Source: Octopus vulgaris
Taxonomy: Eukaryota
Reading direction: 5' to 3'
Assembly (NCBI GenBank): GCA_951406725.2
Contig: OX597839.1
Coordinates: 21,390,001 to 21,454,000 of the forward strand
Length of the DNA stretch: 64,000 nt
A program made the translations under genes and the position numbers. Shown here piece after piece: positions 4,713-61,083 of the stretch (position 1 is its first letter; each line of letters begins with the position of its first letter). Below the pieces are notes generated by a model, which searched no databases, was not told where the DNA came from, and saw nothing but the letters and a program-made list of their open reading frames with translations.

Positions 4713-5081
4713 TCTTAGACGAGGGAGCCATTGATATATGTGTCCTCAATTTGCTCAACAATCCCTTCTAAGTCGTCTATCACCTATGAGCATTTATCTT
4801 GCCCAAACTTCATTCCAATGTCCCGTGGTAATGTTGTGACTAGTTCTGTCTCTTGATGTTTATGTCAGCAGAATATACCTTTAGGTCACCAACAGAAAAT
4901 ATGTGGCTGATAATAATTTTATTCTCTTTCGCATATTCCAGTATGTTGCCATGGTAATTGTGTTAACAGGGCTGACAAACGATTCACAACCAGTACAAAC
5001 AACATTACAGATAAACTACGAGCCTGGAATATGTCCGTCGATAGCGTAATTCTATTTGCAACAATAGCTGTTGTTTTAGGA

Positions 5082-10706: not shown

Positions 10707-10836
10707 CACCACCACCACCACCACCACCACCACCACCACTACCACAAGGTAGATGAGTTAAATGGATGACGAAGTAGGAGAGTGTTGTTGTTTGGACCTG
10801 GGTCAATAATGAGTGAGACCAGTCGGATTATAATCA
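10550..10836 (+). repeat. Local duplicate of 8698-8978 inserted into the Tc1 relic
   Basis: Near-identical block including the (CTA)n(CCA)n tract. Confidence 0.92.
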
Positions 10837-11984
10837 CATGTCCATTGTTTATACAGAATTGGTACGAAGAGCACAAAAGTGGAGTACTACCCCCACCTCT
10901 TTCCAGTCACCGGATCTCAATATAACCGAAAATTTGTGGTAGATTTTGGAGGAGCAAGTGAGGAGCTGCTCCTTTCCATTTCAGGACGATAATGTACCGA
11001 CTCACATGTCCATTGTTTATACAGAATTGGTACGAAGAGCACAGAAGTGGAGTACCACCCCCACCTCTTTCCAGTCACCGGATCTCAATATAACCGAAAA
11101 TTTGTGGTAGATTTTGGAGGAGCAATTGAGGAGCTGCTCCTTTCCATTTCAGGACGATAATGTACCGACTCACATGTCCATTGTTTATACAGAATTGGTA
11201 CGAAGAGCACAGAAGTGGAGTACCACCCCCACCTCTTTCCAGTCACCGGATCTCAATATAACCGAAAATTTGTGGTAGATTTTGGAGGAGCAAGTGAGGA
11301 GCTGCTCCTTTCCATTTCAGGACGATAATGTACCGACTCACATGTCCATTGTTTATACAGAATTGGTACGAAGAGCACAAAAGTGGAGTACCACTCCCAC
11401 CCCTTTCCAGTCACCGGATCTCAATATAACCGAAAATTTGTGGTAGATTTTGGAGGAGCAAGTGAGGAGCTGCTCCTTTCCATTTAAGGACGATAATGTA
11501 CCGACTCACATGTCCATTGTTTATACAGAATTGGTACGAAGAGCACAGAAGTGGAGTACCACCCCCACCTCTTTCCAGTCACCGGATCTCAATATAACCG
11601 AAAATTTGTGGTAGATTTTGGAGGAGCAAGTGAGGAGCTGCTCCTTTCCATTTCAGGACGATAATGTACCGACTCACATGTCCATTGTTTATACAGAATT
11701 GGTACGAAGAGCACAGAAGTGGAGTACCACCCCACCCTTTCCAGTCACCGGATCTCAATATAACCGAAAATTTGTGGTAGATTTTGGAGGAGCAAGTGAG
11801 GAGCTGCTCCTTTCCATTTCAGGACGATAATGTACCGACTCACATGTCCATTGTTTATACAGAATTGGTACGAAGAGCACAAAAGTGGAGTACTACCCCC
11901 ACCTCTTTCCAGTCACCGGATCTCAATATAACCGAAAATTTGTGGTAGATTTTGGAGGAGCAAGTGAGGAGCTGCTCCTTTCCA
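10837..11984 (+). repeat. 168-bp tandem array (about 7 units) derived from the Tc1 catalytic region
   Basis: CATGTCCATTG recurs at 10837, 11005, 11173, 11341, 11509, 11677 and 11843. Confidence 0.96.
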
Positions 11985-12353
11985 TCATCGTTGCTCAAAG
12001 AGCTAAAGCAAGTTTTCCTTGAGCATTCAGCAAATAGCTAACTCCATCCACCAGAGTATTAAGGTCATGATAGACTACCCCACTAAACACCCTAACCATG
12101 GACTACTAGTACTAGACACATAACTCTGGCTGGAAACTGAGAATAACAAAACCCTCCTCTGTCAGCTATCAAGAGGATTCTCTACGAAGCAATTCCTCGT
12201 CGTATTAAATGTGTAATTGATGCCAAAGGTGGACCAACTCGGGATTGAATGATGAATCTTCCATTCAACAAAGTGTTTCTATTATTTAGCCCAAACCCTG
12301 AAGAACGAATACAGAGAGAGGGAAGATGCGGAGGAGGAGGTGATACTTCATAG

Positions 12354-32537: not shown

Positions 32538-32959
32538 GTTTACTCGTTTACTCGTTTACTTGTTTCAGTCATTTGACTGCGGCCATGCTGGAGCACCGCC
32601 TTTAATCGAGCAAATCGACCCCGGGACATATTCTTTGTAAGCCCAGTACTTATTCTATCGGTCTCTTTTGCCGAACCGCTAAGTGACGGGGACGTAAACA
32701 CACCAGCATCGGTTGTCAAGCAATGCTAGGGGGACAAACACAGACACACAAACATATACACACACATGCACACACATATATATATATACATATATACGAC
32801 AGGCTTCTTTCAGTTTCCGTCTACCAAATCCACTCACAAGGCTTTGGTCGGCCCGGGGCTATAGCAGAAGACACTTGCCCAAGATGCCACGCAGTGGGAC
32901 TGAACCCGGAACCATGTGGTTGGTTAGCAAGCTACTTACCACACAGCCACTCCTGCGCC
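32538..32959 (-). mobile_element. SINE family B
   Basis: Full-length copy. Confidence 0.93.
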
Positions 32960-33459
32960 TATTTGCTTGTTTTCATTATATATTTTTTAATTTCTTAGAA
33001 TCCTTCTTCGAAGAAAAAATATGGTTTCTTCAAAAGGAAGTAAACTCTGCTGCTAGAATTTTGATAACAATAATAATCATTGTTAAACTTCGAAAAAATC
33101 CTGCATATTTTTACTGTTCCACTTACAAGATAGATTTGTAAAATATTTGTAAGCGATTTCTTTCTTTCTCTGAAAATCCTTGCCTTTCCAGATTGCCTCT
33201 TCGACATTTACTAACATAATCAAATGCACCAGTAATTACTGGTATAAATGGGATATGATCTGAATAGAGGAGCAGCAGGTATTGAAGGCGTTATCTGTAA
33301 ATATTATCTTTCTTACTGGTTTAGGAAAAGATGGTCACATTTGGAGGGCAGCTAACTTTTATGAGTAGATATAATTTTTCTTTTCTCTCTCAAATAACTA
33401 TATTAGGCCTGTTATGATTGTACTCGGGAATGTCCCACCAATCTTTCTACTGTTGAGAA

Positions 33460-34109: not shown

Positions 34110-34866
34110 TGGCGTCAAGTTGGCAGGATCGTTAATATGTCTTTATGTTCTGATTTCAAAATCCGCCGAAGTCGACTTTCCTTTTCATCCTTTCAGGAAC
34201 CAGTTGCAGTAAAAATGCATTAACCAAGTGCACAAAAACGAAGTGAATAACAACCTGCGTATCGTTAGGGAACGTCTCAGAAAGAATTCGCTTCCCGATG
34301 ACCTGTGAACCCAGAAGTGCAGAACCAACAGATGTCAACAAACACTCTGCAAACTACAGGGGGAAAAAAAGTGAAACAAGAGTTGATGTAATCGACTTAC
34401 CCTTCCCTCCAAATTGCAGGCTTTTTTTTTTTTTTTTTTTTTACTTGTCTCAGTCATTTGACTGCGGCCATGCTGGAGCACCGCCTTTAGTCGAGCAGAT
34501 CGACCCCGGGACTTATTATTTGTAAGCCCAGTACTTATTCTATCGGTCTCTTTTTGCCGAACCGCTAAGTGACAGGGACATAAACACACCAGCATCGGTT
34601 GTCAAGCAATGCTAGGGGGACAAACACAGACACACAAACATATACACACACATACATATATATATATATACATATATACGACAGGCTTCTTTCAGTTTCC
34701 GTCTACCAAATCCACTCACAAGGCATTGGTCGGCCCGGTGCTATAGCAGAAGACACTTGCCCAAGGTGCCACGCAGTGGGACTGAACCCGGAACCATGTG
34801 GTTGGTTAGCAAGCTACTTACCACACAGCCACTCCTGCGCTTTGTGTGAAAATTTGAAACCAATAT
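34110..34866 (+). mobile_element. Old SINE A split by an inverted LINE piece and a SINE B
   Basis: Head and core at 34110-34198, GATGTAATCGACTTACCC at ~34386, tail TTGTG..AAAATTTGAAACCA at 34842-34862. Confidence 0.65.
34422..34840 (-). mobile_element. SINE family B
   Basis: Full-length copy. Confidence 0.93.
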
Positions 34867-34904
34867 TTTCCTCCTCCTCTTCCTCAACTTTACAGGAAAC
34901 ATAC

Positions 34905-36340
34905 ACGTTCACTTTTTCCCCCCTGTAGTTTGTAGAGTGTTTGTTGAAATCTGTTGCTTCTACACTTCTAGGTTCGCAGGTCATCGGGAAGCGAATTCTT
35001 TTTGAGACATTCCCTACCGATACGTAGGTTGCTATTCACTTCGTTTTTGTGTACTTGGTTTATGCAATTTTGTTGCAAGTGTTTGCCAGTTGCTGTTTCA
35101 GTGATTTCACATTCGAAGCTTGTCTGCCCTGACCCTAGTCGTCTCCCTCTCTCCATACATCTTCGATAGAATCTGTCGGAATCACTGCTTCTCGGGGAGT
35201 TTACAGGTGAAATTAGGATCTTGCCGGCTTTAATGTCTCCGAAGCGTATTTCCTTTTACAAATCAGTCAAACGGGCCTAACTTTGGTATCAGTACTGGTT
35301 CTACAAATGCATTGTGGGATATCGACCTGTTAGAGGAAAACTGACTGGCGGATCTTTTTCAAGTCTGGTGTAGTTTATTCTATTCTTGTTTACCGTAACT
35401 TTTATATATTTTCATCAATGTCTAAGTATTTGTAGTACTTGTTTTGTGGAACAGGGTAGATAGAGACACTGAAGACGCAGGGGTTTTAGGGCAGGGAACC
35501 GTTTTTTTCACGTTGAATTATTGAATATGAATATTTCTTTTGGTCAAACTCCATCCCTTTAGCAACAGAAAATGTGATTAAATCCAGCTGTTTCTCAATA
35601 ATGGAAAGATTTCGCGATAAAGTTCTTTATTGTTCACGAAGAAATGAGTGACATAAGTATCTCTTCCCGTTGTAGACCCAAGGACATAACATGTGGATTT
35701 TCATAAGAGAAACGTCAGCGGATTTGGTAGCAAAATACGCAGAAGTAGACCGATTGTCGCCTTGGAATATTCCCGCTGAAATATTAATAACATCACAGAC
35801 AATCATTTTACTTTCAGTTAGAATTGTGGACCAAGGTCTGCATGAGCTTTCCAAAGGCAGTAACCAAGGCAGCAGATATTTTTGCCATCTGAACTGACTT
35901 CAGCAATCATGAGTGACGAATCGAATGCTTCTTTTGTAATCAAAGCCTGTTGTCACAAAGTTTTTACGATGTCTTCTGACTTCAGACAACACAAATTTAT
36001 TCATCAAAATTTGTTCTGTTTCGGTGCACCCACGAACATCTTTTTTTTTTTTTCGCCTTCCTGATCATCAAGGATGTGATGAGTGCATTAAGTTCCAGTT
36101 TGCATCTTTAAATCGTTCTTCATTATTCATAGTTTTAATGCAGTGCCACTTGTTATGTAATCATCACAACAAACATGAACAATCAACGTTGCCAATTGTC
36201 TCCCTTGATACAAGGACATTCAGTAAGTTTCCCGCCACAACAAATACCTTGTACAACAACGTCAGTCTAATAAAGCATCTCGTATCGTTAACACATTTTT
36301 TCAGTCTCTCTCATTTTCTTAATCTTTCATACTAAGTACT
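34905..36340 (-). pseudogene. Degenerate R4/Dong-clade RT
   Basis: RGCTETEQILMNK, GIFQGD, GYVLG..VTHFFVNNKELY, YKYLDIDE and DSDRFY..ERGRRL occur in order on the minus strand. Confidence 0.72.
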
Positions 36341-37934: not shown

Positions 37935-37975
<41 letters not shown>

Positions 37976-37976
<1 letters not shown>

Positions 37977-38216
37977 TTTATTTTAAGTAGCAGAAAATTC
38001 AACAAAATCTGTTACTCTGAGTTTCTCGTTGCCGTTCATCAGACAGTTTTTGCTAGAAAAAAACTTCTAGCAAAAACTGTCTGATGAACGGCAACGAGAA
38101 ACTCAGAGTAACAGATTTTGTTGAATTTTCTGCTGCTTAAAATAAAGCATATTACTCTACCACTGGTATTTGAGTACTCTTTTTTCCACCTTGTTTCACA
38201 TTTATGTGTTTACTCC

Positions 38217-38217
<1 letters not shown>
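37976..38217. mobile_element. Penelope-like fold-back cassette in (TA)n
   Basis: 83-bp inverted arms 37976-38058 and 38065-38147 with one mismatch, plus a unique 3' extension; each arm has a hammerhead motif. Confidence 0.75.
38077..38114 (+). ncRNA. Minimal type I hammerhead ribozyme (mirror copy on the minus strand at ~38009-38046)
   Basis: CTGT-CTGATGA-ACG GCAA CGA-GAAA-CTC A GAG-TA-ACAG: helix I CTGT/ACAG, palindromic helix III, GTA cleavage triplet. Confidence 0.75.
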
Positions 38218-38267
<50 letters not shown>

Positions 38268-39739: not shown

Positions 39740-39965
39740 ACGTAGCGGTTTGGTAATAAGTTTGCTTCGCAACCACATGGTGCCGGGTTCAGTCCCACTG
39801 CATAGTACCTTAGTTAAGTGTCTTGTACAATAGCCCCGAGACAACCAAAGCCTGTGGTGCCGGGTTCAGTCCCACTGCATAGTACCTTAGTTAAGTGTCT
39901 TGTACAATAGCCCCGAGACAACCAAAGCCTTGTGAGTGGATTTGCTAGACGGAAACTGAAAGGAA
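39740..39965 (+). mobile_element. Older SINE B 5' half with internal 77-bp tandem duplication
   Basis: TGGTGCCGGGTTCAGTCCC...ACCAAAGCCT at 39778 and again at 39855. Confidence 0.85.
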
Positions 39966-42840: not shown

Positions 42841-43243
42841 CTCTTTTCTCTCTTTTACTCTTTTACTTGTTTCAGTCATTTGACTGCGGCCATGCTGGAG
42901 CACCGCCTTTAATCGAGCAACTCGACCACGGGACTCATTCTTTGTAAGCCCAGTACTTATTCTATCGGTCTTTTTTGCCGAACCGCTAGGTGACGGGGAC
43001 GCAAACACGCCAGCATCGGTTGTCAAGTAATGCTAGGGGGACAAACACAAACACACACATATATATATATATACATATATACGACGGGCTTCTTTCAGTT
43101 TCCGTCTACCAAATCCACTCACAAGGCTTTGGTCGGCCCAAGGCTATAGCAGAAGAGACTTGCCCAAGATGCCACGCAGTGGGACTGAACCCAGGACCAT
43201 GTGGTTGGTTAGCAAGCTACTTACCACAAAGCCACTCCTGCGC
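42841..43243 (-). mobile_element. SINE family B
   Basis: Full-length copy. Confidence 0.92.
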
Positions 43244-43275
43244 CTGCCTCATTCTTTTAAAAATATTTCAACAAA

Positions 43276-43369
<94 letters not shown>

Positions 43370-43695
43370 TGTTAATGTGTGTTTGTGATTGCGTGTACAC
43401 TTAATAAGTATTTTCACCGGTGTGTATATATGTGACCAGTTGTATAGATGTGTGTCATATACAGATATATACATATACACACATACGCGTGCACACGTTT
43501 TAATGTGTATGTTTGTGTGTTTATATGTATGTATATAAATATCTGTATATACATTGTACGCTTGTGTGTACATGTAATCATACATGCGTACTTACATGAC
43601 TGAATATATACGTATACACATACACACACACACACACACATATATTGTATGTATATATATATGCATATATATGCATATATGTGTATGTATATATT

Positions 43696-44489: not shown

Positions 44490-44903
44490 ACTCTCTCTCT
44501 CTCTTTTTTACTTGTTTCAGTCATTTGACTGCGGCCATGCTGGAGCACCGCCTTTAGTCGAGCAAATCGACCCCGGGACTTATTCTTTGTAAGCCCAGTA
44601 CTTATTCTATCAGTCTCTTTTGCCGAACCGCTAAGTTACGGGGACATAAACACACCAGCATCGGTTGTCAAGCAATGCTAGGGGGACAAACACAGACACA
44701 CAAACACACACAAACACACACATATATATATATATATACATGACAGGCTTCTTTCAGTTTCTGTCTACCAAATCCTCTCACAAGGCATTGGTCGGCCCGG
44801 GGCTATAGCAGAAGACACTTGCCCAAGATGCCACGCAGTGGGACTGAACCCGGAACCATGTGGTTGGTTAGCAAGCTACTTACCACACAGCCACTCCTGC
44901 ACC
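44490..44903 (-). mobile_element. SINE family B inserted in (TACA)n
   Basis: Full-length copy. Confidence 0.92.
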
Positions 44904-44932
44904 TACATACATACATACATACATACATACAT

Positions 44933-45660
44933 TATGGCTTCCCCCTCGTTATCGAGTATGGCCATTGCACGAAGCTTAACTGTTACTGGTGATGTGATCG
45001 AATGTGACTTTTTAGCCCAGCTAAAGACCTACAATGTCTTGTACAAAATTGGCAACTAAAACCTTTACTGGTAATAGCCGGCTGTAGTTGTAACTAGGCT
45101 TCATGTACCTTTGCATGTCGTTTAAGTCCTCCTGCCGAATTACACTCTCTTCCACATGCCCGACAGATATGATTAGTATGGTGTGTTACACCACCACCAG
45201 TGGCCGGGTTGTCACTCATCTGTCTCGTTTTATGACTACGAAGATGACTCATGAGTCCAGCTTTACTGAGGCAGGGTCTTGCACAGACATTGCATGTCAG
45301 AATCAAAGGAAGACCCTTCCCTTCTGGAAGTGTAACAGCGATGCCCTTCCTGACATCCCTCCTTACTTTCTCATGTGCAACTCGAGATTTCTCAAACGTG
45401 GCTGTCCCCTCGTGCACAATCCTTCTCCACCTGCTACGATCAATAGCTATGCCTTCCCATGTGTCAGGAGAGATGCAAGCCTCTCTTAAGGAAGCCTTCA
45501 GCAAGTCCTTATAACTCTTTTGGGGTTTATGTGGAGGTCGTTCTCCTTTAGCTAACTCTCCATAAAAGAGTTGTTTTGGCATCCTCGAATCCTACATTAT
45601 GACCAGATGACCACTCCATCTGAGCCTTTGCTTTAACACAAGAGCTTCTATACTTTCAAT
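44933..45660 (-). mobile_element. 5'-truncated RTE LINE with two C-terminal C2H2-like fingers
   Basis: SIEALVLKQRLRWSGHL, MPKQLFYGEL, CNVCARPCLSKAGLMSHLRSH and CRACGRECNSAGGLKRHAKVH; (TACA)n on both sides. Confidence 0.88.
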
Positions 45661-46403: not shown

Positions 46404-46603
46404 GCACACACACATATATAATGTATGTATGCATACTGCTTACAAACTTATCCATACATCGTATGTACACTGGTGTCGTCGTCCACTTCGGACTATGTAA
46501 CCTTATGTATTTCCTTCAGCATAGAACTGAGGGACTTGCTGAAATGGCAAAAAGTTACTGAACGTAGACAGATTTACGAAAACAAAAACCTGTGCTTTTA
46601 TGC

Positions 46604-46985
46604 AGCTGTGTGGTAAGTAGCTTGCTAAACAACCACATGGTTCCGGGTTCAGTCCCACTGCGTGGCATCTTGGGCAAGTGTCTTCTGCTATAGCCCCGGG
46701 CCGACCAATGCCTTGTGAGTGGATTTGGTAGACGGAAACTGATAGAAGCCTGTCGTATAAATGTATATATATATGTATGTGTGTGTGTTTGTGTGTCTGT
46801 GTTTGTCCCCCTAGCATTGCTTGACAACCGATGCTGGTGTGTTTACGTCCCCGTCACTTAGCGGTTCGGCAAAAGAGACCGATAGAATAAGTACTGGGCT
46901 TACAAAGAATAAGTCCCGGGGTCGATTTACTCCAGCATGGCCGCAGTCAAATGACTGAAACAAGTAAAAGAGAAAAAAAGAGTAA
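46604..46985 (+). mobile_element. SINE family B with a small internal deletion
   Basis: Lacks GCTCGACTAAAGGCGGTG at ~46929. Confidence 0.9.
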
Positions 46986-47084
46986 AGTATCCCAGTTTTT
47001 ACGAGGTTAAATTGTATGAAAGAAAAAAAAAACAACTGAAAGTTTCATGTTTTACCTGGGTTAATTCTTTTTATCGAAGATAAA

Positions 47085-47536
47085 CTGCTAAAAATGAAGC
47101 GACAATGAGTGATAAGGGGGCTTTTGAGGCTCTTGACCGATTACTTCAAGATCTGAGGCGCAACTCAAGGCTTATAATGGTCGGCCTAACAGTACTCGTC
47201 GCAGACGACTTTCGGCAAACACTCCCAGTCATTCCAAAGGGAACGAGAGCAGAAGAGGTAAATGCGGGCATCGGATCTTCATACCATTGGAGGAGCAAGG
47301 TTAGAAAGTTGAAGCTCACAACAAACATGAGAGTGCAGTTTGGTGGTGATGCACACATGGAGAACTTCTGCAGGCAATTAATGGATATTGGAAATAGTGC
47401 GGTAATTGTTGAGCAGAAGGGGAAGATTAGTTTACCCTTTGGCAATTTGGTGTCAAATATACGCGAACTGTTGGCGAGAGTTTTCCCCGGTCTAAACACA
47501 CAATTCACAGAACATTGTCGCCTGAGAATACAGTAA
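47085..47536 (+). pseudogene. Helitron Pif1-like helicase fragment
   Basis: MSDKGAFEALDRLLQDLR, DFRQTLPVIPKGTRA and LKLTTNMRV motifs. Confidence 0.9.
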
Positions 47537-49648: not shown

Positions 49649-50056
49649 TCTCTCTATATATAAACGGCAGTTTGTCTGTCTGTGTGTCTGTGTGTCTGTC
49701 AGGTTGTACCCTCACCCTGACCACGGCTTTCAACCGATTCTGATGAAACTTGACACACACATAGCCAAATGTCATAATTCAAAACTAACGCAGCGAAAAT
49801 TTTGAAAAGTTCCCCCAGTTCTGAAATAAATCGATAAATTCGACATGGGGTCGAAAATCTAAGCTTTTTATATGCAACACATTTTCTGTCGGGAGACAGC
49901 TAGGAACATCGTATACATAGAAGTATTCGAGTGAAGAGAAGACATTGCAACCTACACATGCGCCTTCGTTCCCTAGAGGGAAAGAACTAGATTGGGATTA
50001 GTCGTTGCCTACTAGGGGCTCTTACATACCCGGGCAACGCCGGGCTATGCTGCTAG
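49649..50056 (+). mobile_element. Non-autonomous Helitron, variant 3' half
   Basis: A|TC start; 5' ~205 bp shared with 17580; ends CCCGGGCAACGCCGGGCTATGCTGCTAG|T. Confidence 0.9.
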
Positions 50057-50069
50057 TTATAAATAAATA

Positions 50070-50478
50070 GGCGCAGGAGTGGCTGTGTGGTAAGTAGCTT
50101 GCTAACCAGCCACATGGTTCTGGGTTCAGTTTCACTGCGTGGAACCTTAGGCAAGTGTCTTCTGCTATAGCCTTGGGCCGACCAAAGCCTTGTGAGTGGA
50201 TTTGGTAGACGGAAACTGAAAGAAGCCTGTCGGATATATGTATATATATATATGTATGTGTGTGTGTGTGTGTCTGTGTTTGTCCCCCTAGCATTGCCTG
50301 ACAACCGATGCTGGTGTCCCCGTCCCTTAGCGGTTCGGCAAAAAGACACCGATAGAATAAGTACTGGGCTTACAAAAGAATAAGTCCCGGGGTCGAGTTG
50401 CTCGATTAAAGGCGGTGCTCCAGCATGGCCGCAGTCAAATGACTGAAACAAGTAAAAGAGTAAAAAGAGTAAGAGTAA
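50070..50478 (+). mobile_element. SINE family B
   Basis: Full-length copy. Confidence 0.92.
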
Positions 50479-50607
50479 ACAACAAACTGAACAATGAACT
50501 GAGTACGTGAATTAGAATTAAAATATCTTTGTTACAAACTGGTAGTGACTTCGAAGCTTCACCAACACACACACACTCATACATATATATCTACATATTT
50601 TTTCTTT

Positions 50608-52412
50608 AATTTATCTAGTTTCAGCTCACGAGCTGTGGCCATGCTGGGGCATCGGCATTTGGTATTGCTACATAATTTTACTTCACGAATGCTTTTTAGG
50701 AATTGAGATTTGGTGCATGAGATAGTTCGATGCAGCTGCCCTCATCTGCACCTCCTGCCGCGAAGTTGGTTCATCTTGGACACCTGACAGGAAGAGGTCC
50801 AGCTTTATTTTGAAGACACCTACATCCACCCCATGCAGGTCTCTCAGGTCCTTCGGGAGGATATTGAAGAGCTGTGGACCTCTGAAGCCCAGGCTATCAC
50901 AGTATCTTGTCCTACATCTTGAAGGCAAATTTGGAGTCCTTGGCACTATGCAGTGGCGCCCAGTTCTAGTATTTGTGTAAGTCTCGATGCCAAAGTTTGG
51001 GACAAGTCCTTCCAGGATCTTTCAGATGTATATTATGGCATATCTTTCTCGCCTGCGCTCTAAGGAATAGAGTCGTAATCTCTTGAGTCTTTCCCAGTAG
51101 CTTATATGCTACACAGAGGCTATCTTCTTCGTGTAGCTTCGTTGGATCGCCTCAAGTTCTGTGATCAACTTGACACTGGATGGTGACCATAGCTGAGAGC
51201 AATAGTCAAAGTGGCTTAGGACAAGTGTCCTCCAGTGGGCCATCATGGTTTCCTGGTCTCTTGTTCTAAAACTCTAAGAATCCATCCGGTCAGCCGCCTA
51301 CATTTCATTGCCAATTTAGCAACATGCACATGGAAGAATGCATCATTACTCATGTAAATGCCCAGGTCTCGCACTGATTGTGTCTCTGGGATTGCAATCC
51401 CTCCAGGTCCAGTGTATTTATTGGGTATTGCATTTAGTTTTGCATGCTGATAGCATAAAGCCTGAAACTTTTCAGCATTGAACTGCATGCTATTCTTTTC
51501 AGCCCACTTGTATATTTCGTCCAGCTCACATTGCCGATGCATAATGTCTTCAGGGTTCTGTATTACCTGTGAGACTTTTGTATCATCTGCATAACTTGTG
51601 ATCGGGGCTCTCTGTGTGGCTGAGGGCATGTCTGAGAGGGTCATTATGAACAGCAGTGGTCCCAAAACAGTGCCTTGCGGAACACCGCTCATTATTTGCG
51701 TGTCATTGGAGGTGGCCCCATTGGCTACTACTACCGGACTTCTATCCTTCATGAAAGTCATAAAGCTATTCTCCCAATTTTCCAACTATGCCAAGATCAC
51801 GCAGTTTGTGACATATCATTCCATGATCGACTTTATCAAAGGCCTTTGCAAAGTCGAGATATATCACTTCCACATTTGAGTGGTTGAGCAGTCGTTTCAG
51901 CACCCAGTCATAGTGTTGTAGGAGCTGCGTTAGGCAGCTTCTTCCTGGTCGGAAACCATGTTGGGTGTCAGGCAGCAAGTCATTTTCTTCAAGGAAGGCG
52001 ATTAATTTCTTTCTGACTATTCGTTCCATGACCTTGCTGATGTGTGAGGTCAGAGAGATAGGTCTGTAGGTCTTGGCTCCGCTCTGCTACCTCCTTTATG
52101 AATAGGGCATATTTTACCCTCCTTCAGTTTTCTTGAAGTTTGCCAGTTGCAAGGAAGCTCTGAAAGAGGAACTGCAGTGGTCTTGCTAGGACTCTCTTAC
52201 ATACTTTTAGGAGGATTGCAGGGAGGATTGCAGCTGAGTTTGGGTTCAATTTTTCTATAGCCCTTATTCCATCGTCTTTCTTTTATATGGATGTAATCGA
52301 TCATCATTGTCTCTGTTTTTATATCTGCAGTGGTAAAGAAGTCAGTTGGATTGTTGAATTGCAAGTGTCCCAGAGGTGGAATGAAAATGCTTTTGAATTG
52401 CTCAATTAGTAT
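50608..52412 (-). mobile_element. 5'-truncated CR1-like LINE (RT domain, frameshifted)
   Basis: QHGFRPGRSC, YLDFAKAFDKVDH, SGVPQGTVLGPLLF and YADD motifs; 3' UTR at ~50610-50680. Confidence 0.92.
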
Positions 52413-53109: not shown

Positions 53110-56100
53110 TTTTTTTTTTTCTAGTTTCAGCTCAGAGCTGCGGCCATGCTGATGCACCGCCGTTTTGTGCTACACTGTTATTACGACGAACCTCGTCTAA
53201 TATGTGGCACTTGGTGAAGAATGGAGTTTGATACAGCTACACTCATTTGCACCTCTTGCCGTGAGGTAGGTTTATCTGGGACTCTTGACAGGAAGGTGTC
53301 CAGCTTTGATTTAAAAACCGCTACATCTACTTTGTGCAAGTTCCTCAGACTCTTTGGGAGAATATTAAAAAGCTGTGGGCTCTTGAAACCCAGGTTGTTG
53401 CAGAAGCTGGTCCTGAAGCGTGATGGCATTGCTGGGATCTTTGGCACTATGCGGTGTCGTCCCGTTCTAGCATTTGTGTAGCTTACAATGCCAAAATTTG
53501 GCACAATTCCTTCCAAGATCTTCCAGACATATATCACTGCATACCTCTCCCGTCTTCTCTCCACAGGAGTAGAGTCTTAGCTGTTTCAACCTTTCCCAGT
53601 AGCTGAGCTGTTGCAAAGAGATCATCTTCTTTGTGAATCTTCTCTGGATTGGTTCAAGTTCCGCTATTAATTTTACACTGGTGGGTGACCATAGATGTGA
53701 GCAGTAATCCAGGCGAATGAGGACGAATGTCCGCCAGAGGACCATCATGGTTTCCTTATCTCTGGTTCTGAATGTTCTTAGGATCCATCCAGCCAGTCGT
53801 CTGCACTTTGTCGCCATCCTGGTAATGTGCACTTGGAAAGAGGTATCATCACTCATGTCGATACCCAGGTCCCTCACAGACTTAGGCTCTGGGATTGAAA
53901 TTCCCTGTGGACCGGTGTATCGTGTAAGTTTAATATTCAGTTTTGGATGCTGGTAGCGCAGGGCCTGGAATTTTTCAGCATTAAACTGCATATTATTATC
54001 CTCAGCCCATCTGTAGATTGAGTCCAACTCCTGCTGCAGGTGTGCAACATCGCTGGGGTTCTGTATTTTCTGCGAGACTTTCCTATCGTCTGTATAGCTT
54101 GCAAGAGTGGCTATCCGGGCATTTGAGGGCATATCTGAGAGGGCCACTATAAGAAGCAGTGGTCCCAAGACAGTGCCCTGTGGAACACCGCTCACTATTT
54201 GTGTGTTCATAGAGGTGGCTCCATTAACTACTACTGCCTGACTCCTATCTTTCAGGAAGTCATGCAACCACACTTCAAGTTTTCCAGCTATGCCGAGGTC
54301 ACGTAGTTTGTGGCATATCATACCATGATCCACCTTGTCAAAAGGTTTTGCAAAATCAAGGTAGATTACGTCCACATTTGATTTGTTGAGTAACTGCCTC
54401 AACACCCAGTCATAATGCTGTAAGAGCTGGGTCAGGCAGCTCCTACCTGGTCGAAAACCATGCTGGGTATTACTCAGCAAGTTATTTTCCTCAAGTAATG
54501 CGATTAGTTTCTTTCTGACTATCCTTTCCATGACTTTACTGATGTGTGAAGTCAGAGAGATAGGCCTATAGTTTTTGGCATCTGCTCTACTTCCCCCTTT
54601 ATGTATTGGGCATATTATTCCCTCCTTCAGCTTGCTTGGCAGTTTGCCATTCGCAAGAAAGCTCTGGAAGAGAATCTTGAGGGGTTTTGCCAGGGCATGC
54701 TTACACGCTTTGAGGAGGATGGCTGGGAAACCGTCTGGACCAGCAGCTGAGTTTGTGTCCACTTCATCTATGGCTAGTAGGACATCTTTTTCGCTAATGT
54801 CAATACATTCTATTGTAACCGCCTCGCTGGTTATAGGTGAGGCGGCAAAGAAGTCCACTGGTTCGTTCACTTGTCTGTGTTCCAACGGGGTGGTAAAGAC
54901 ACTTTTGAACTGGTCATTCAGCATCTCACTGATCATAGTTGGACTGTCTGTGAGGGAGCCATCCTTTTGGAGGAGGGGTCCTATCTTGTAGTGCACTGAG
55001 ACTGTTTCTTTCGCGTAATGAAAGAAGGCCTTTGGGTTTGATTTAATGTTTTTTATAACCCAGGCTTCTTTGTCTGCTTTCTCCTTCACATAGGATTGTT
55101 GCAGCCTTTTTTCGATCTCCATCAGTGTTGTTTTTAGGCGGGACGTTTCGCTACTTTTGGGATGTTGGTTGAGACGATTTGCAACCTTCGTCCGTCGTCT
55201 CATGAGGATCTTCCTGTCTCTTGGAATCTTGCGCCTATTTGTTTTGGCCTTGTGCTCTGGGACATATTTCTGGCATACGGCTTGCACAGAAGAGATGAAA
55301 CATTCTAGTTTCATTTCAATGTCTGGTGTGGAGAGACATTCCGGCCAGTTCTCTCTGAGGATCTCTTTTTGGATCGATTTCCAATCTGCTTTGTGGAAGT
55401 TCAGATTGGAGAGATTTCGGGTGCTTCCTTTAGGCTGTATGTCTCTGGTTACTTTCGGCCCAAACATAGACAGCTCTATTATGTTGTGATCCGAAACTGA
55501 TGTCGGTGTCACTTTCACATCATGAATGATGTCCATATTGTTCGTGAAGCAGAGATCCAGAATGTTATTCGCCCTAGTTGGCTTGAGTACAACTTGCTCC
55601 ATGAATAAGGCATTGGTGAGGTTGAGCAGGGACTCCACCTGTACTTGCTTTCAATGATTCATTCCTGAGAGTATGTGACCTTCGGGCCATTTGACGTTGG
55701 GGAAGTTGAAATCACCCATAAGAAATATGGTCACGTGGTGTTCCAGATTCATGAGGATTTCTTTAATTCTTGTGAGGCAATCTTCAAACTTGCCTATGTG
55801 ATTTGGGGCATCCGGTGGGCAATATGTATTGCATATGACTATATTATGTTGTCTTATGTATACAATTAAGGTGTCACATACCGAATTTGAGTATGTCATC
55901 AAGACCTGGGGTGTGAGGTCATCTCGGATGTATACAGCAACTCCACCATGGCTCCTTTCCCTTCTGTCTGTTCGCAGTATGGCATAGTTTGGTATGTGTA
56001 CTTCTGCGTCCTCTATATCAGGGTTGAGGTGAGTTTCCACAAGTGCTATGCATAGGGCTTGATTGCATGCAGTAAGATCTCTCAGGAAATAAATTTTGTT

Positions 56101-56320
56101 TCTATTTTGATGCAACAGGCCCCCAATATTTAGTAAAAGTATTGGGGTGACGGCTGTGCAGGCGTTAGGGGAGGCCATCCCGTGTCTGTTGACTGTGGTG
56201 GTCCTGCATGGTGGTGGGCAGGGTTCCTTCTCTGTGCTTGGTGTAGCCAGGTTAGCTGCCGGACAATTCTTTCCGCCATGCATAAAAAAGACTCTTGCTC
56301 AGCTGCTGCGTTGCGCAGAA
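53110..56320 (-). mobile_element. Near-complete ORF2 of a CR1-like LINE (APE endonuclease plus RT), two frameshifts
   Basis: Endonuclease motifs LVETHL, GGVAVYI, MGDFN, NILDL and SDHN; RT motifs NYRPISLTS, GVPQG and YTDD; ORFs 55651-56283, 53467-55638 and 53181-53564; A-rich tail. Confidence 0.95.
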
Positions 56321-58450: not shown

Positions 58451-58493
<43 letters not shown>

Positions 58494-58535
58494 CAAATAT
58501 AAAATATATATATATATGCGAGTAGTGCATATAAT

Positions 58536-61083
58536 TTACTTATTGATGTCATTACTTCATCTATTGAGGGCGAAGAGTCTAAGGAGCCAATGATAGGTCT
58601 TGGTTTCATAGTATCAATCACTGTTTCATCCACAACGGACTCATGGTTTAGGAGTTCAGAGAAGTGTTCGATCCAGCGACCTGTGATTTCTGTTGATTTA
58701 GTAAACATAGTGGAAGACTCCTTGGAAAACAAAGGAGCTGATGTGGAGCTCTTAGGTCCATAAGCTCGCTTCATAAGATGGTAAAGCTTCTTGCTGTCAT
58801 TTGCATCAGCAGCAGCCTGAACATCACGAGCAAGATCCTCCCACCAAGTGTTCTGCATCTTCCTGAGAGATCGCTGCAGTAGTGATTTTACACTGTTATA
58901 GTGGGCAAGTGCTAGATTTCGCTGCACAGCAGACAGTTCTCTGTGCAGCAACACACTGTGGGCATGGCACTTTACCACTAATAGTCCCTGAATTTCAGCA
59001 TCATTCTCATCAAACCAGTCTCTGTGTCTGGCAGTAACATACCCCAGTTTTTTGGCTGCACATTGAACAACCTGGTCTCGAAAATCTTCCCATGCTGCAG
59101 CAGTTTCAATGCTGGACAAGCGAGTCTGAAGCTCTTTCCTAACCACAACGTCATATACCTTGTGGACATTTAGACGGCGAGGAATGCTGACTGGTCCTCT
59201 TCTCACTTTCGCCCTAATCACCATTCGGAACTTTGCTCGCACCAGACCGTGGTCTGTCCAGCATTCTGATCTATGCAAGGACTTGACATTACAAATGTCA
59301 TAAATGTCGCGCTTGCGGATGATGACGTAATCCAGCGAGTGCCAAACTTTGGACCTTGGATGCATCCATGTTGTTGTGTGGTCACCTTTGTGCACAAAAT
59401 GAGTGCGTGCAAGGGCACCTGGAAAGGATGGAATCTGTGCTGAGGTCTTGCGATTTGGCGGTAATTACATCACACAGTCCCTTCATGAACTTATTAGTGC
59501 AGTCTGGAGGGATGGTGCAAACCCTAAGGACTGGAAGGATGCAATTATTATTCTTCTATATAAAGAAAAAGGAGCCAGAACAATGTGTGGTAACTACAGA
59601 GGTATTGCTCTATTATCAGCAGTTGCAAGGTTCTAGCAAATATTCTTCTTACCCGTCTGAATGGGTGTCTCGTAAATGATGTCCTATCTGAATCTCAATA
59701 TGGCTTCCGATCTGGTAGAGGGACAATGGATATGATTTTCACAGCAAGACAGATGCAGGAGAAAGTGCTATGAGCAGAATATGGATCTTGTCCAGGTATT
59801 CATTGATTTAACTAAGGCCTTTGATACTGTAAATAGGGCCTTTCTATGGAAAATACTTGGCAAACTTGGATGTCCGGATCACTTTGTATCTATAATTAAA
59901 TCATTTCATGATGGGATGGAGGCTTGGGTCAATGTTGGTGGTACCATGGCGGGACCCATTCCTGTAGAGAATGGTGTCAAGCAGGGTGACATCTTTGCCC
60001 CAACTCTCTTTCCTTTGTACTTTGCTGCTGCTTTTACTCATGCTTTAGCTAAGGTTAGCTCTCTGGGAATATATGTCAGATATCGATCTTCTGGCTGCCT
60101 CTTTAATCTTCGCCGATTTGCTGCCAATTCAAAGGTTTCCCAGTCTATTATTCGTGACCTCCTGTATGCAGATGACTGTTACTTAGTCACTCATACAGTG
60201 GATGACATGCAAATACCCATGAATTGCATTTCTGCTTCTTGCAGGGCATTTGGACTCAGCATTAGCCTAGACAAGACTGTTGTAATGTTCCAGCCTGCAC
60301 CAGGAAATCCATATATAGAACCAGCTATCTTGGTTGAAGGAGCAATTCTGAAGGTAGTAGACACGTTTGTCTACCTGGGCAGCACACTCAGCCGTTCTTG
60401 CTCCCTGGATGAGGAAATATCTTTCAGGTTGCAGAGAGCAACTAATTCCTTCCGGTCTCTTCAGTCTCGTGTCTGGTCGCAACATGGCATCGCAAGACGG
60501 ACAAAAAGTTGCTGTGTACCGTGCATGTGTACTGACATCGCTCCTCTACTCATGTGAGACATGGACTCTGTACAAACGTCAGGTAAGGGTCCTTCAACGC
60601 TTTCATCAATATTGGCTGGACCTCAAAAATTCCAGACACACAGGTCCTGAGGACAGCTGATATCTTGAGTATTGAGGCGATGGTGCACAAGCACCGTTTG
60701 CGTTGGACTGGACACATTCGAATGAAGGATAGCAGGATTCCTAAGCAGATGCTCTATGGAGAACTTGTGAATGAAAGGAGACTCCGGTAGAAACCAAGAC
60801 TGCGATTTAAGGACTGGGAGAACAATGCCTGTCATCGCCACAGACACTTTTGAGAGAGCACGTATCCAGCATGAAAAACTTAAGCGAGCTGCGCGAAGCG
60901 CACGGCTCGTATAGTGAATGGAGAAAGCTTGGTCTGCAATGTTTGCAGTCGTGTATGCTTGTCAGGAGCAGGGCTCATTAGCCACCAACGGACCCGCAAA
61001 TGTAAGATATAAGTTAGTCCTAGAGCGCACAATGTTCCTGAAGGTCGGCAAAGGTCTTCCTCGGTCACGAGTGGACGGCCATC
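58536..61083 (+). mobile_element. RTE LINE with inverted 5' segment (58536-~59396 minus; ~59397-61083 plus)
   Basis: Minus part: TWMHPRSKVWHSLDYVI..TDH..SIDEVMTSISK. Plus part: APGKDGICAE, NYRGIALLS, FIDLTKAFDTV, GVKQG, LLYADD. TSD AGTGCAT(A/G)TAAT at 58524-58535 and 61084-61095. Confidence 0.93.

Follow-up and report, generated by a model that had tools for sequence, protein, structure and literature searches.

The fold-back cassette at positions 37976 to 38217 of the window (the whole 64,000-nucleotide stretch of Octopus vulgaris DNA analyzed here) is a short two-armed inverted insertion of a Penelope-like element (PLE) of the Hydra clade, and as a single locus it is a real but ordinary product of a new family of this clade. 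The layout, the one-sided tail, the (TA)n targeting and the hammerheads on opposite strands have already been published for such elements. What is new is the near-obligate pairing of a short with a long 3' end and a pile-up of 5' ends, both quantified here, which provide a modest mechanistic clue. In the papers covered by our literature searches, neither the pairing nor the pile-up was quantified. Overall, these insertions are likely to have arisen by target-primed reverse transcription that started from both DNA ends on a single uncleaved RNA of the element.

Layout of the Cassette

Element positions are counted from the hammerhead C3 as 0, which corresponds to 38081 on the plus strand and 38042 on the minus strand. 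The following features were assigned:

37938..37975, no strand: left (TA)n target tract (repeat search)
37976..38058, minus strand: short (S) arm, a 5'-truncated pLTR with element positions -16 to +66, ending at the tail-less 3' site
38009..38046, minus strand: S-arm copy of the minimal type I hammerhead motif, with C3 at 38042 and a cut predicted to follow 38013
38059..38064, plus strand: 6-nt junction filler, identical to element positions -9 to -4 (sequence)
38065..38217, plus strand: long (L) arm, a 5'-truncated pLTR with element positions -16 to +136, ending at the tailed 3' site
38065..38125, plus strand: predicted extended helix I, -16 to -1 with +30 to +44 (fold prediction)
38077..38114, plus strand: L-arm copy of the minimal type I hammerhead motif, with C3 at 38081 and a cut predicted to follow 38110
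38148..38217, plus strand: PLE tail of 70 nt, which separates the two fixed 3' ends
38153..38177, plus strand: bulged hairpin 1 (+72 to +96), 5 nt 3' of the short end
38218..38264, no strand: right (TA)n target tract (repeat search)

The inverted arms described in an earlier note on this DNA were all found again at their positions: 83 bp each (37976-38058 and 38065-38147) with a single mismatch (37988 versus 38135), a 6-nt loop and (TA)n on both sides, and with a hammerhead core in each arm, starting at 38081 on the plus and at 38042 on the minus strand. The loop reads AAAAAC, the same letters as element positions -9 to -4, and was likely templated during end joining. The suspected inverted pLTR copy is also present, as the S arm (-16 to +66) lies head to head with the L arm (-16 to +136), and the 70-nt tail is found on the right arm only, the left arm being without it. 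Both arms are 99% identical to a copy with an intact ORF, from which the S arm differs by one substitution. The 5' edge of the predicted extended helix I coincides with the pile-up of 5' truncations described below.

The Element Family

Copy numbers were determined by exact and variant pattern searches of the genome. The 34-nt hammerhead motif has 3,674 exact genomic copies and the reversed control none, so the motif is not a product of chance; with subfamily variants included, the number of matches rises to 7,270. Two divergent motifs at most 60 nt apart, i.e., fold-back loci, occur 799 times. The adjacent Penelope ORF that the earlier note had proposed to look for does exist: in tandem units of 3.35 kb (motif spacing 3,352-3,365 nt), an intact ORF for a reverse transcriptase (RT) with a GIY-YIG domain is found about 200 nt downstream of the motif, which supports the origin of the cassette from a PLE.

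The ORF is a frame of 727 codons with YRDD and VVY..YTG, and the protein carries the signatures RWK, DKT, CxCX5C, CxxC and CxH at positions 53, 129, 578, 683 and 711, respectively, without CCHH and without a Cys between VVY and YTG. Among 7,994 database candidates scored, 1,760 relatives were found at E<=1e-20. An AlphaFold model (mean pLDDT 88) has telomerase RTs as best structural matches; a PDB sequence search with the protein gave nothing informative. A Pfam search of the protein returned no match, and the GIY-YIG-type nuclease is therefore assigned by motif only. A single ORF with a telomerase-like RT and, at the C-terminus, a GIY-YIG-type nuclease, together with partial tandems and inverted 5'-truncated copies as pLTRs with an optional one-sided tail, is the organization of an EN+ PLE, and the set of protein signatures without CCHH and the preference for (TA)n are those of the Hydra clade. 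Judged from these sequence features, membership in the Hydra clade is nearly certain. Of the 61 genomic ORF matches scored, 58 have no internal stop (identity 95-100%), which suggests recent activity of the element. A non-LTR retrozyme is defined by direct tandem non-coding units, each with a hammerhead (partial text of bioRxiv 10.64898/2026.07.22.740005); the cassette is not of this kind, since its two arms point in opposite directions and what is repeated in tandem is the coding element of 3.35 kb.

Contigs from four presumed RNA runs cover 27-30 of 30 element bins; no splice joint near the hammerhead was seen in these contigs, which cannot show starts, strand or level. A sister family suggested by a loose-end motif was also considered and dropped, as this motif had no genomic match.

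Two Fixed 3' Ends Occur in Short and Long Pairs

Copies of the element end at two fixed 3' sites. The short end is at +66 and was found in 4,476 genome matches running directly into TATATA, which the search pattern required; unselected ends agree with insertion into (TA)n. The long end is at about +137, with 2,892 matches on the forward strand (the reverse count is inflated by overlaps). Both ends are followed, 5-8 nt further 3', by a bulged hairpin, the two hairpins being alike in shape, and the twin of bulged hairpin 1, at +145 to +167, lies past the long end and is present in intact copies only. These twins, with 5 bp, a TTT bulge and 3-4 bp (locus L031, positions 5007-5029, and window 38153-38177), are candidate start signals.

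For the analysis of pairing, the first 100 short-end and 69 long-end matches of one contig were mapped to a natural copy; this sample is the first part of that contig, and its BLAST ends are uncertain by a few bases. Seventy-three of the 100 short ends face an inverted long arm, two a doubtful short one and two something else, and 23 are unpartnered, while among the 69 long ends 55 face a short arm, none a long arm, three something else, and 11 are unpartnered. After deduplication, 92 unique short and long insertions stand against two doubtful short and short and no long and long combinations, and an independent choice of start sites is rejected (92/94, p 5e-25 versus 0.5). The short 3' end also terminates full-length copies. 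In a crude pattern test of an older subfamily (n=30), nine short partners and one long-type match were found, and 20 cases were unclassified; the lone long-type match belongs to a neighbouring insertion, and several of the 20 have short partners by eye. One locus, L152, lies outside the usual rule: a long arm is joined to an inverted piece spanning the tail into the beginning of the ORF.

The 5' Ends Pile Up Around -17

With the short 5' class defined as a 5' end at -25 or later, both arms are short in 75 of the 92 insertions and both long in 15, with only two mixed cases (Fisher test, 2e-15). The interval from -18 to -12 holds 55 of the 184 5' ends, corresponding to a stop rate of 0.085 per nt, compared with 2 of 184 between -120 and -26 (0.0007 per nt). 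The predicted cut site (+28 to +33) likewise holds 2 of 184 ends (rate 0.002) and thus no excess, which implies uncleaved templates, as used by Poseidon in vitro (available part of PMC11167929). Genome-wide, 2,882 arms reach -13 and 1,569 reach -22, a loss for which point mutation would account only in part. In 23 insertions only one arm stops at -18 to -12, so the palindrome alone is not the cause of the stop. Within the long 5' class, the lengths of the two arms correlate (rho 0.63, n=15).

The 7-mer CCATTCT, which is Initiator-like, has its A at -17 and is one of two matches in the 180 nt from -120 to +60. An extra G at this position, the pattern expected from a cap, was counted by eye in only 2 of about 26 solo arms abutting TA, with the commonest junction excluded by the pattern. 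In D. virilis, an intron ends at helix I. An intron ending at -11, where there is an AG acceptor-like site, was considered for the present family; no spliced arms were noticed in the junction lists. An internal promoter with an Initiator has been described for D. virilis Penelope (in part of PMC2377424). On balance we lean towards the view that the -17 stop is the 5' end of the RNA.

Full-length copies (30 loci) behave differently from a simple run-off, as none of 28 parsed upstream pLTRs begins at -18 to -12, four begin at +61 to +68 and six extend past the 1.5 kb fetched. A simple linear RNA from -17 is therefore insufficient for the long class: unless -17 is a pause, the long insertions require circles, multimers or jumps between templates. 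Another, minor group of 5' ends was observed at the short start site, in 4 of the 28 full-length copies (L174, L188, L189 and L190) and in 6 of 92 long arms (+56 to +69), as if one enzyme were blocked where the other one starts.

The Two Arms Share a Parent

The two arms of one insertion share ancestry. At subfamily-diagnostic sites they agree in 353 of 363 cases, compared with a mean of 0.58 and a maximum of 0.69 for shuffled pairs. For 17 long pairs, agreement extends to 683 of 701 diagnostic sites, with 18 discordant ones. In these pairs, 49 private variants are common to both arms versus 66 in one arm only; no other sampled arm is as close as the partner in 13 pairs, while there is a tie in two and a closer non-partner in two. 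Successive master copies or gene conversion may contribute to this concordance.

Among the 92 junctions, 60 show microhomology, 10 are blunt and 22 contain filler, and 14 of these fillers match the element end over at least 6 nt (a raw count without chance control). Exact CTAG/CTAG palindromes form six junctions, and almost no junctions are found at the palindromes at -30 to -35, -44 and -68. In 42 insertions the 5' end of the short arm lies beyond that of the long arm by more than 5 nt, with the tail on the long arm only; in 14 the long arm starts at +56 or beyond and the arms barely overlap. From the A·A mismatch shared by both arms of the cassette, the earlier note had concluded that one arm is probably a copy of the other. 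This conclusion is not supported, since A·A is present in all 3,674 exact copies of the motif and each arm contains sequence absent from the other in the above 42 insertions. An unpaired or mismatched base at this place is typical of Hydra-clade hammerheads (according to the part of PMC8557442 dealing with them), and A·A is therefore uninformative on arm copying.

The Hammerhead Motif and Its Predicted Folding

The motif has the canonical core of a type I hammerhead (CUGANGA, GAAA and NUH with three helices), with a helix II of 2 bp, a GNRA loop, a palindromic helix III and a long helix I of 14 pairs, interrupted by one mismatch and one bulge. The usual G10.1-C11.1 pair at the base of helix II is replaced by A·A, A·G or A-U, followed by C-G, a deviation that is frequent in published Hydra motifs, too. 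Folding predictions are in line with the proposed minimal hammerhead that acts as a dimer: the palindromic helix III would allow a dimeric fold, and the two arms cofold as a dimeric hammerhead at -27.0 kcal/mol versus 2 x -12.4 (= -24.8) kcal/mol for the monomers, with the monomer hammerhead fold lying 4.7 kcal/mol above the minimum. Both hammerheads would be carried along with the pLTR, and according to the predictions each of them folds only in dimeric form.

In the suggested comparison with hammerhead models, Rfam returned no hammerhead model for the arm at E<=10, and the matches listed (150 of 194) are only sub-threshold miRNA hairpins. In view of the missing Rfam match, the ribozyme call is based on inspection of the motif and on the Hydra-clade motifs in print. 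Among 249 copies, heritable variants are located at N7, the loop, the helix II base, the palindrome centre and U4, and four of these five lineage-variable sites fall within 8 free positions of 34 (p 0.007, with free positions chosen by the analyst and copies that are related); the fifth is U4C. Older subfamilies (e.g., L197-L225) have CCGANGA, i.e., U4C, with an A-U pair at the helix II base, and the young lineage has the canonical CUGAUGA with A·A. U4C is reported to reduce but not abolish hammerhead activity (available part of PMC3088659), and in the Hydra hammerheads in print, helix II is often flanked by an unpaired base on either side (PMC8557442, in part).

Proposed Two-Ended Priming and Alternative Explanations

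In the proposed mechanism, the element enzyme would cut the (TA)n tract on both strands, and each cut DNA end would prime reverse transcription on one uncleaved element RNA, one primer starting at the short and the other at the tailed site, each presumably just 5' of a bulged hairpin. Both cDNAs would halt near -17, probably the RNA 5' end at the Initiator-like CCATTCT, and would then be joined head to head via microhomology or templated filler; in a read-through RNA, the 83-bp hairpin would mask both hammerheads. Priming from two ends is the step we hold to be very likely; the unpartnered ends (23 of 100 short, 11 of 69 long) count against it. As an extension, the short fold-backs could be paired "strong-stop" cDNAs, for which a protein dimer would use two hairpin-marked start sites of a single capped linear RNA from -17, and the long or more-than-unit insertions could come from circular RNA, formed when the hammerheads in tandem transcripts pair through helix III and cut, followed by ligation. 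Circular templates for PLEs have been proposed earlier in the literature. We offer this extension tentatively and consider it doubtful; if true, one cycle would account for the tail and the inversion as well as for the partial tandems and the ribozyme.

Self-priming has been proposed for the inverted junctions of PLEs (in part of PMC3846280): a single cDNA, or an antisense template, would fold at a CTAG palindrome and copy itself, which fits the near-identity of the arms and the six exact palindromic junctions. However, the short arm reaches further 5' than the long arm in 42 of the 92 insertions, with the tail on the long arm only; the arms barely overlap in 14, the short end is unpartnered in 23 of 100 cases and also ends full-length copies, and the other palindromes attract almost no junctions, so that we regard self-priming as improbable. 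The cassette might also be a non-autonomous, MITE-like mobile unit copied whole, since the same junction recurs at many loci, and the long arm could be re-transcribed and re-mobilised in trans. Yet the junctions are highly varied, the recurring ones are explained by the -17 stop with short microhomology, and both ends are those of PLE reverse transcription and not of a transposase, which makes such a unit very improbable. Of the suggested switch, in which the RNA would be either a dsRNA hairpin serving as ADAR/Dicer substrate or an active ribozyme, the thermodynamic part stands: the read-through RNA is predicted to fold at -148 kcal/mol, masking both hammerheads, with a probability of about 1e-48 for the hammerhead closing pair in the whole-cassette fold. 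A functional host element is nevertheless the least probable of these readings. There is no sign of selected function at the locus, which is one of 799 similar young insertions and shares 99% identity with copies that have an intact ORF; in the ORF list of the window we recognised no host gene, and the monomer hammerhead does not reach the minimum (4.7 kcal/mol above it).

A different question is whether, with priming from two ends retained, the -17 stop is a pause or roadblock, caused by a bound protein or by a displaced cDNA folding back along helix I. The pile-up does coincide with the 5' edge of the extended helix I, the correlated arm lengths are predicted by simultaneous synthesis, and full-length copies lack the stop; if this were true, short and long 5' classes would come from one kind of template. 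A helix would be expected to stall the enzyme at its 3' foot (+45) and not once it has been unwound, and the Initiator-like 7-mer with its A exactly at -17, one of only two matches in the region, together with the Initiator in the internal promoter of D. virilis Penelope (PMC2377424, in part), speaks for an RNA 5' end. A pause is thus possible, though rather unlikely.

Comparison With Known Systems

In LINE-1 twin priming, both target ends prime on one RNA, which leads to an inversion joined by microhomology; its segments are free of overlap, and its second start is an opportunistic one. In contrast, both starts are fixed in the octopus family and most arms overlap.

The family resembles the EN+ PLEs of the Hydra clade in its signatures (RWK, DKT, CxCX5C, CxxC, CxH, no CCHH), (TA)n target and canonical hammerhead (Craig et al., 2021, PMC8557442; this and the following comparisons refer to the available parts of the papers). 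Hydra-2_aMil has nearly the same helices I and III, and for Penelope-13_HM, a 5'-truncated inverted copy, a hammerhead is listed on both strands, as found here (PMC8557442). The unit of 3.35 kb and the tail of about 70 nt are larger than those of the clade (generally <3 kb and 30-40 nt, respectively), and the 2-bp helix II is unlike the published comparison of Hydra-clade hammerheads (PMC8557442). As the hammerhead differs from that of Hydra-1_oBim (PMC8557442), we are dealing with another family, whose placement in the clade is by signatures. A paper on octopus repeat annotation (PMC13282606) contains no passage on Hydra, hairpins or ribozymes.

In Pen2a_Av as well (Arkhipova et al., 2013, PMC3846280), the inverted pLTR is arranged head to head with a tail on one arm only, palindromes are found at junctions and the pLTR contains an Initiator-like motif. 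Self-priming is proposed there, whereas the non-nested arms described here argue for two primers, and in the octopus family (TA)n conceals the target duplications. Poseidon_Ac cuts both strands in vitro and extends them, has two internal start sites bounding the tail, uses unprocessed RNA and an AT-rich target, and is a predicted dimer (Frangieh et al., 2024, PMC11167929). The two internal start sites around the tail and the AT-rich target are common to both systems; cutting and extension of both strands and the use of uncleaved RNA would be so, too, under the proposed mechanism. In the available text on Poseidon_Ac, no difference in start site between strands is reported and inverted insertions are not discussed; in the octopus family, the same site is almost never used twice per insertion, and both sites are upstream of the ORF. 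The minimal PLE hammerheads of Cervera and de la Pena (2014, PMC4209133) are also of type I with a palindromic helix III and dimer-dependent, with thousands of solo copies and dual motifs 100-700 bp apart on opposite strands. The octopus motif differs from them by its short helix II without the G10.1-C11.1 pair, its long helix I and the U4C of older subfamilies.

PLEs are the sister group of telomerase, and both the building of inverted and tandem insertions and the role of the hammerhead are stated as open questions (PMC8557442, PMC11167929, in the parts available). The family described here is young. It has intact ORFs, its two start sites are exact, (TA)n is a simple target, and its natural products number in the thousands, which makes it suited for tests of two-ended priming, of the RNA 5' end and of the circle model.

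Other Repeats in the Window

The window also contains LINE-like endonuclease/reverse transcriptase fragments, recognised from translations only, at 53467-56298 (minus strand), 50683-51785, 58493-60557, 45094-45591 and 23230-24006. A mariner-like transposase fragment (14755-15309, minus strand) and a helicase fragment resembling Helitron/PIF1 (47084-47536, plus strand) were both judged by eye. Young tandem arrays are located at 10834-11985 (168 bp x 6.9), 13676-14238 (281 bp x 2), 19860-22178 (33 bp x 73) and 39778-39930 (77 bp x 2). Another short interspersed repeat, seen as recurring translations, is present in at least six copies (32698-33141, 34584-34928, 42990-43375, 44682-45059, 46503-46853 and 50022-50511).
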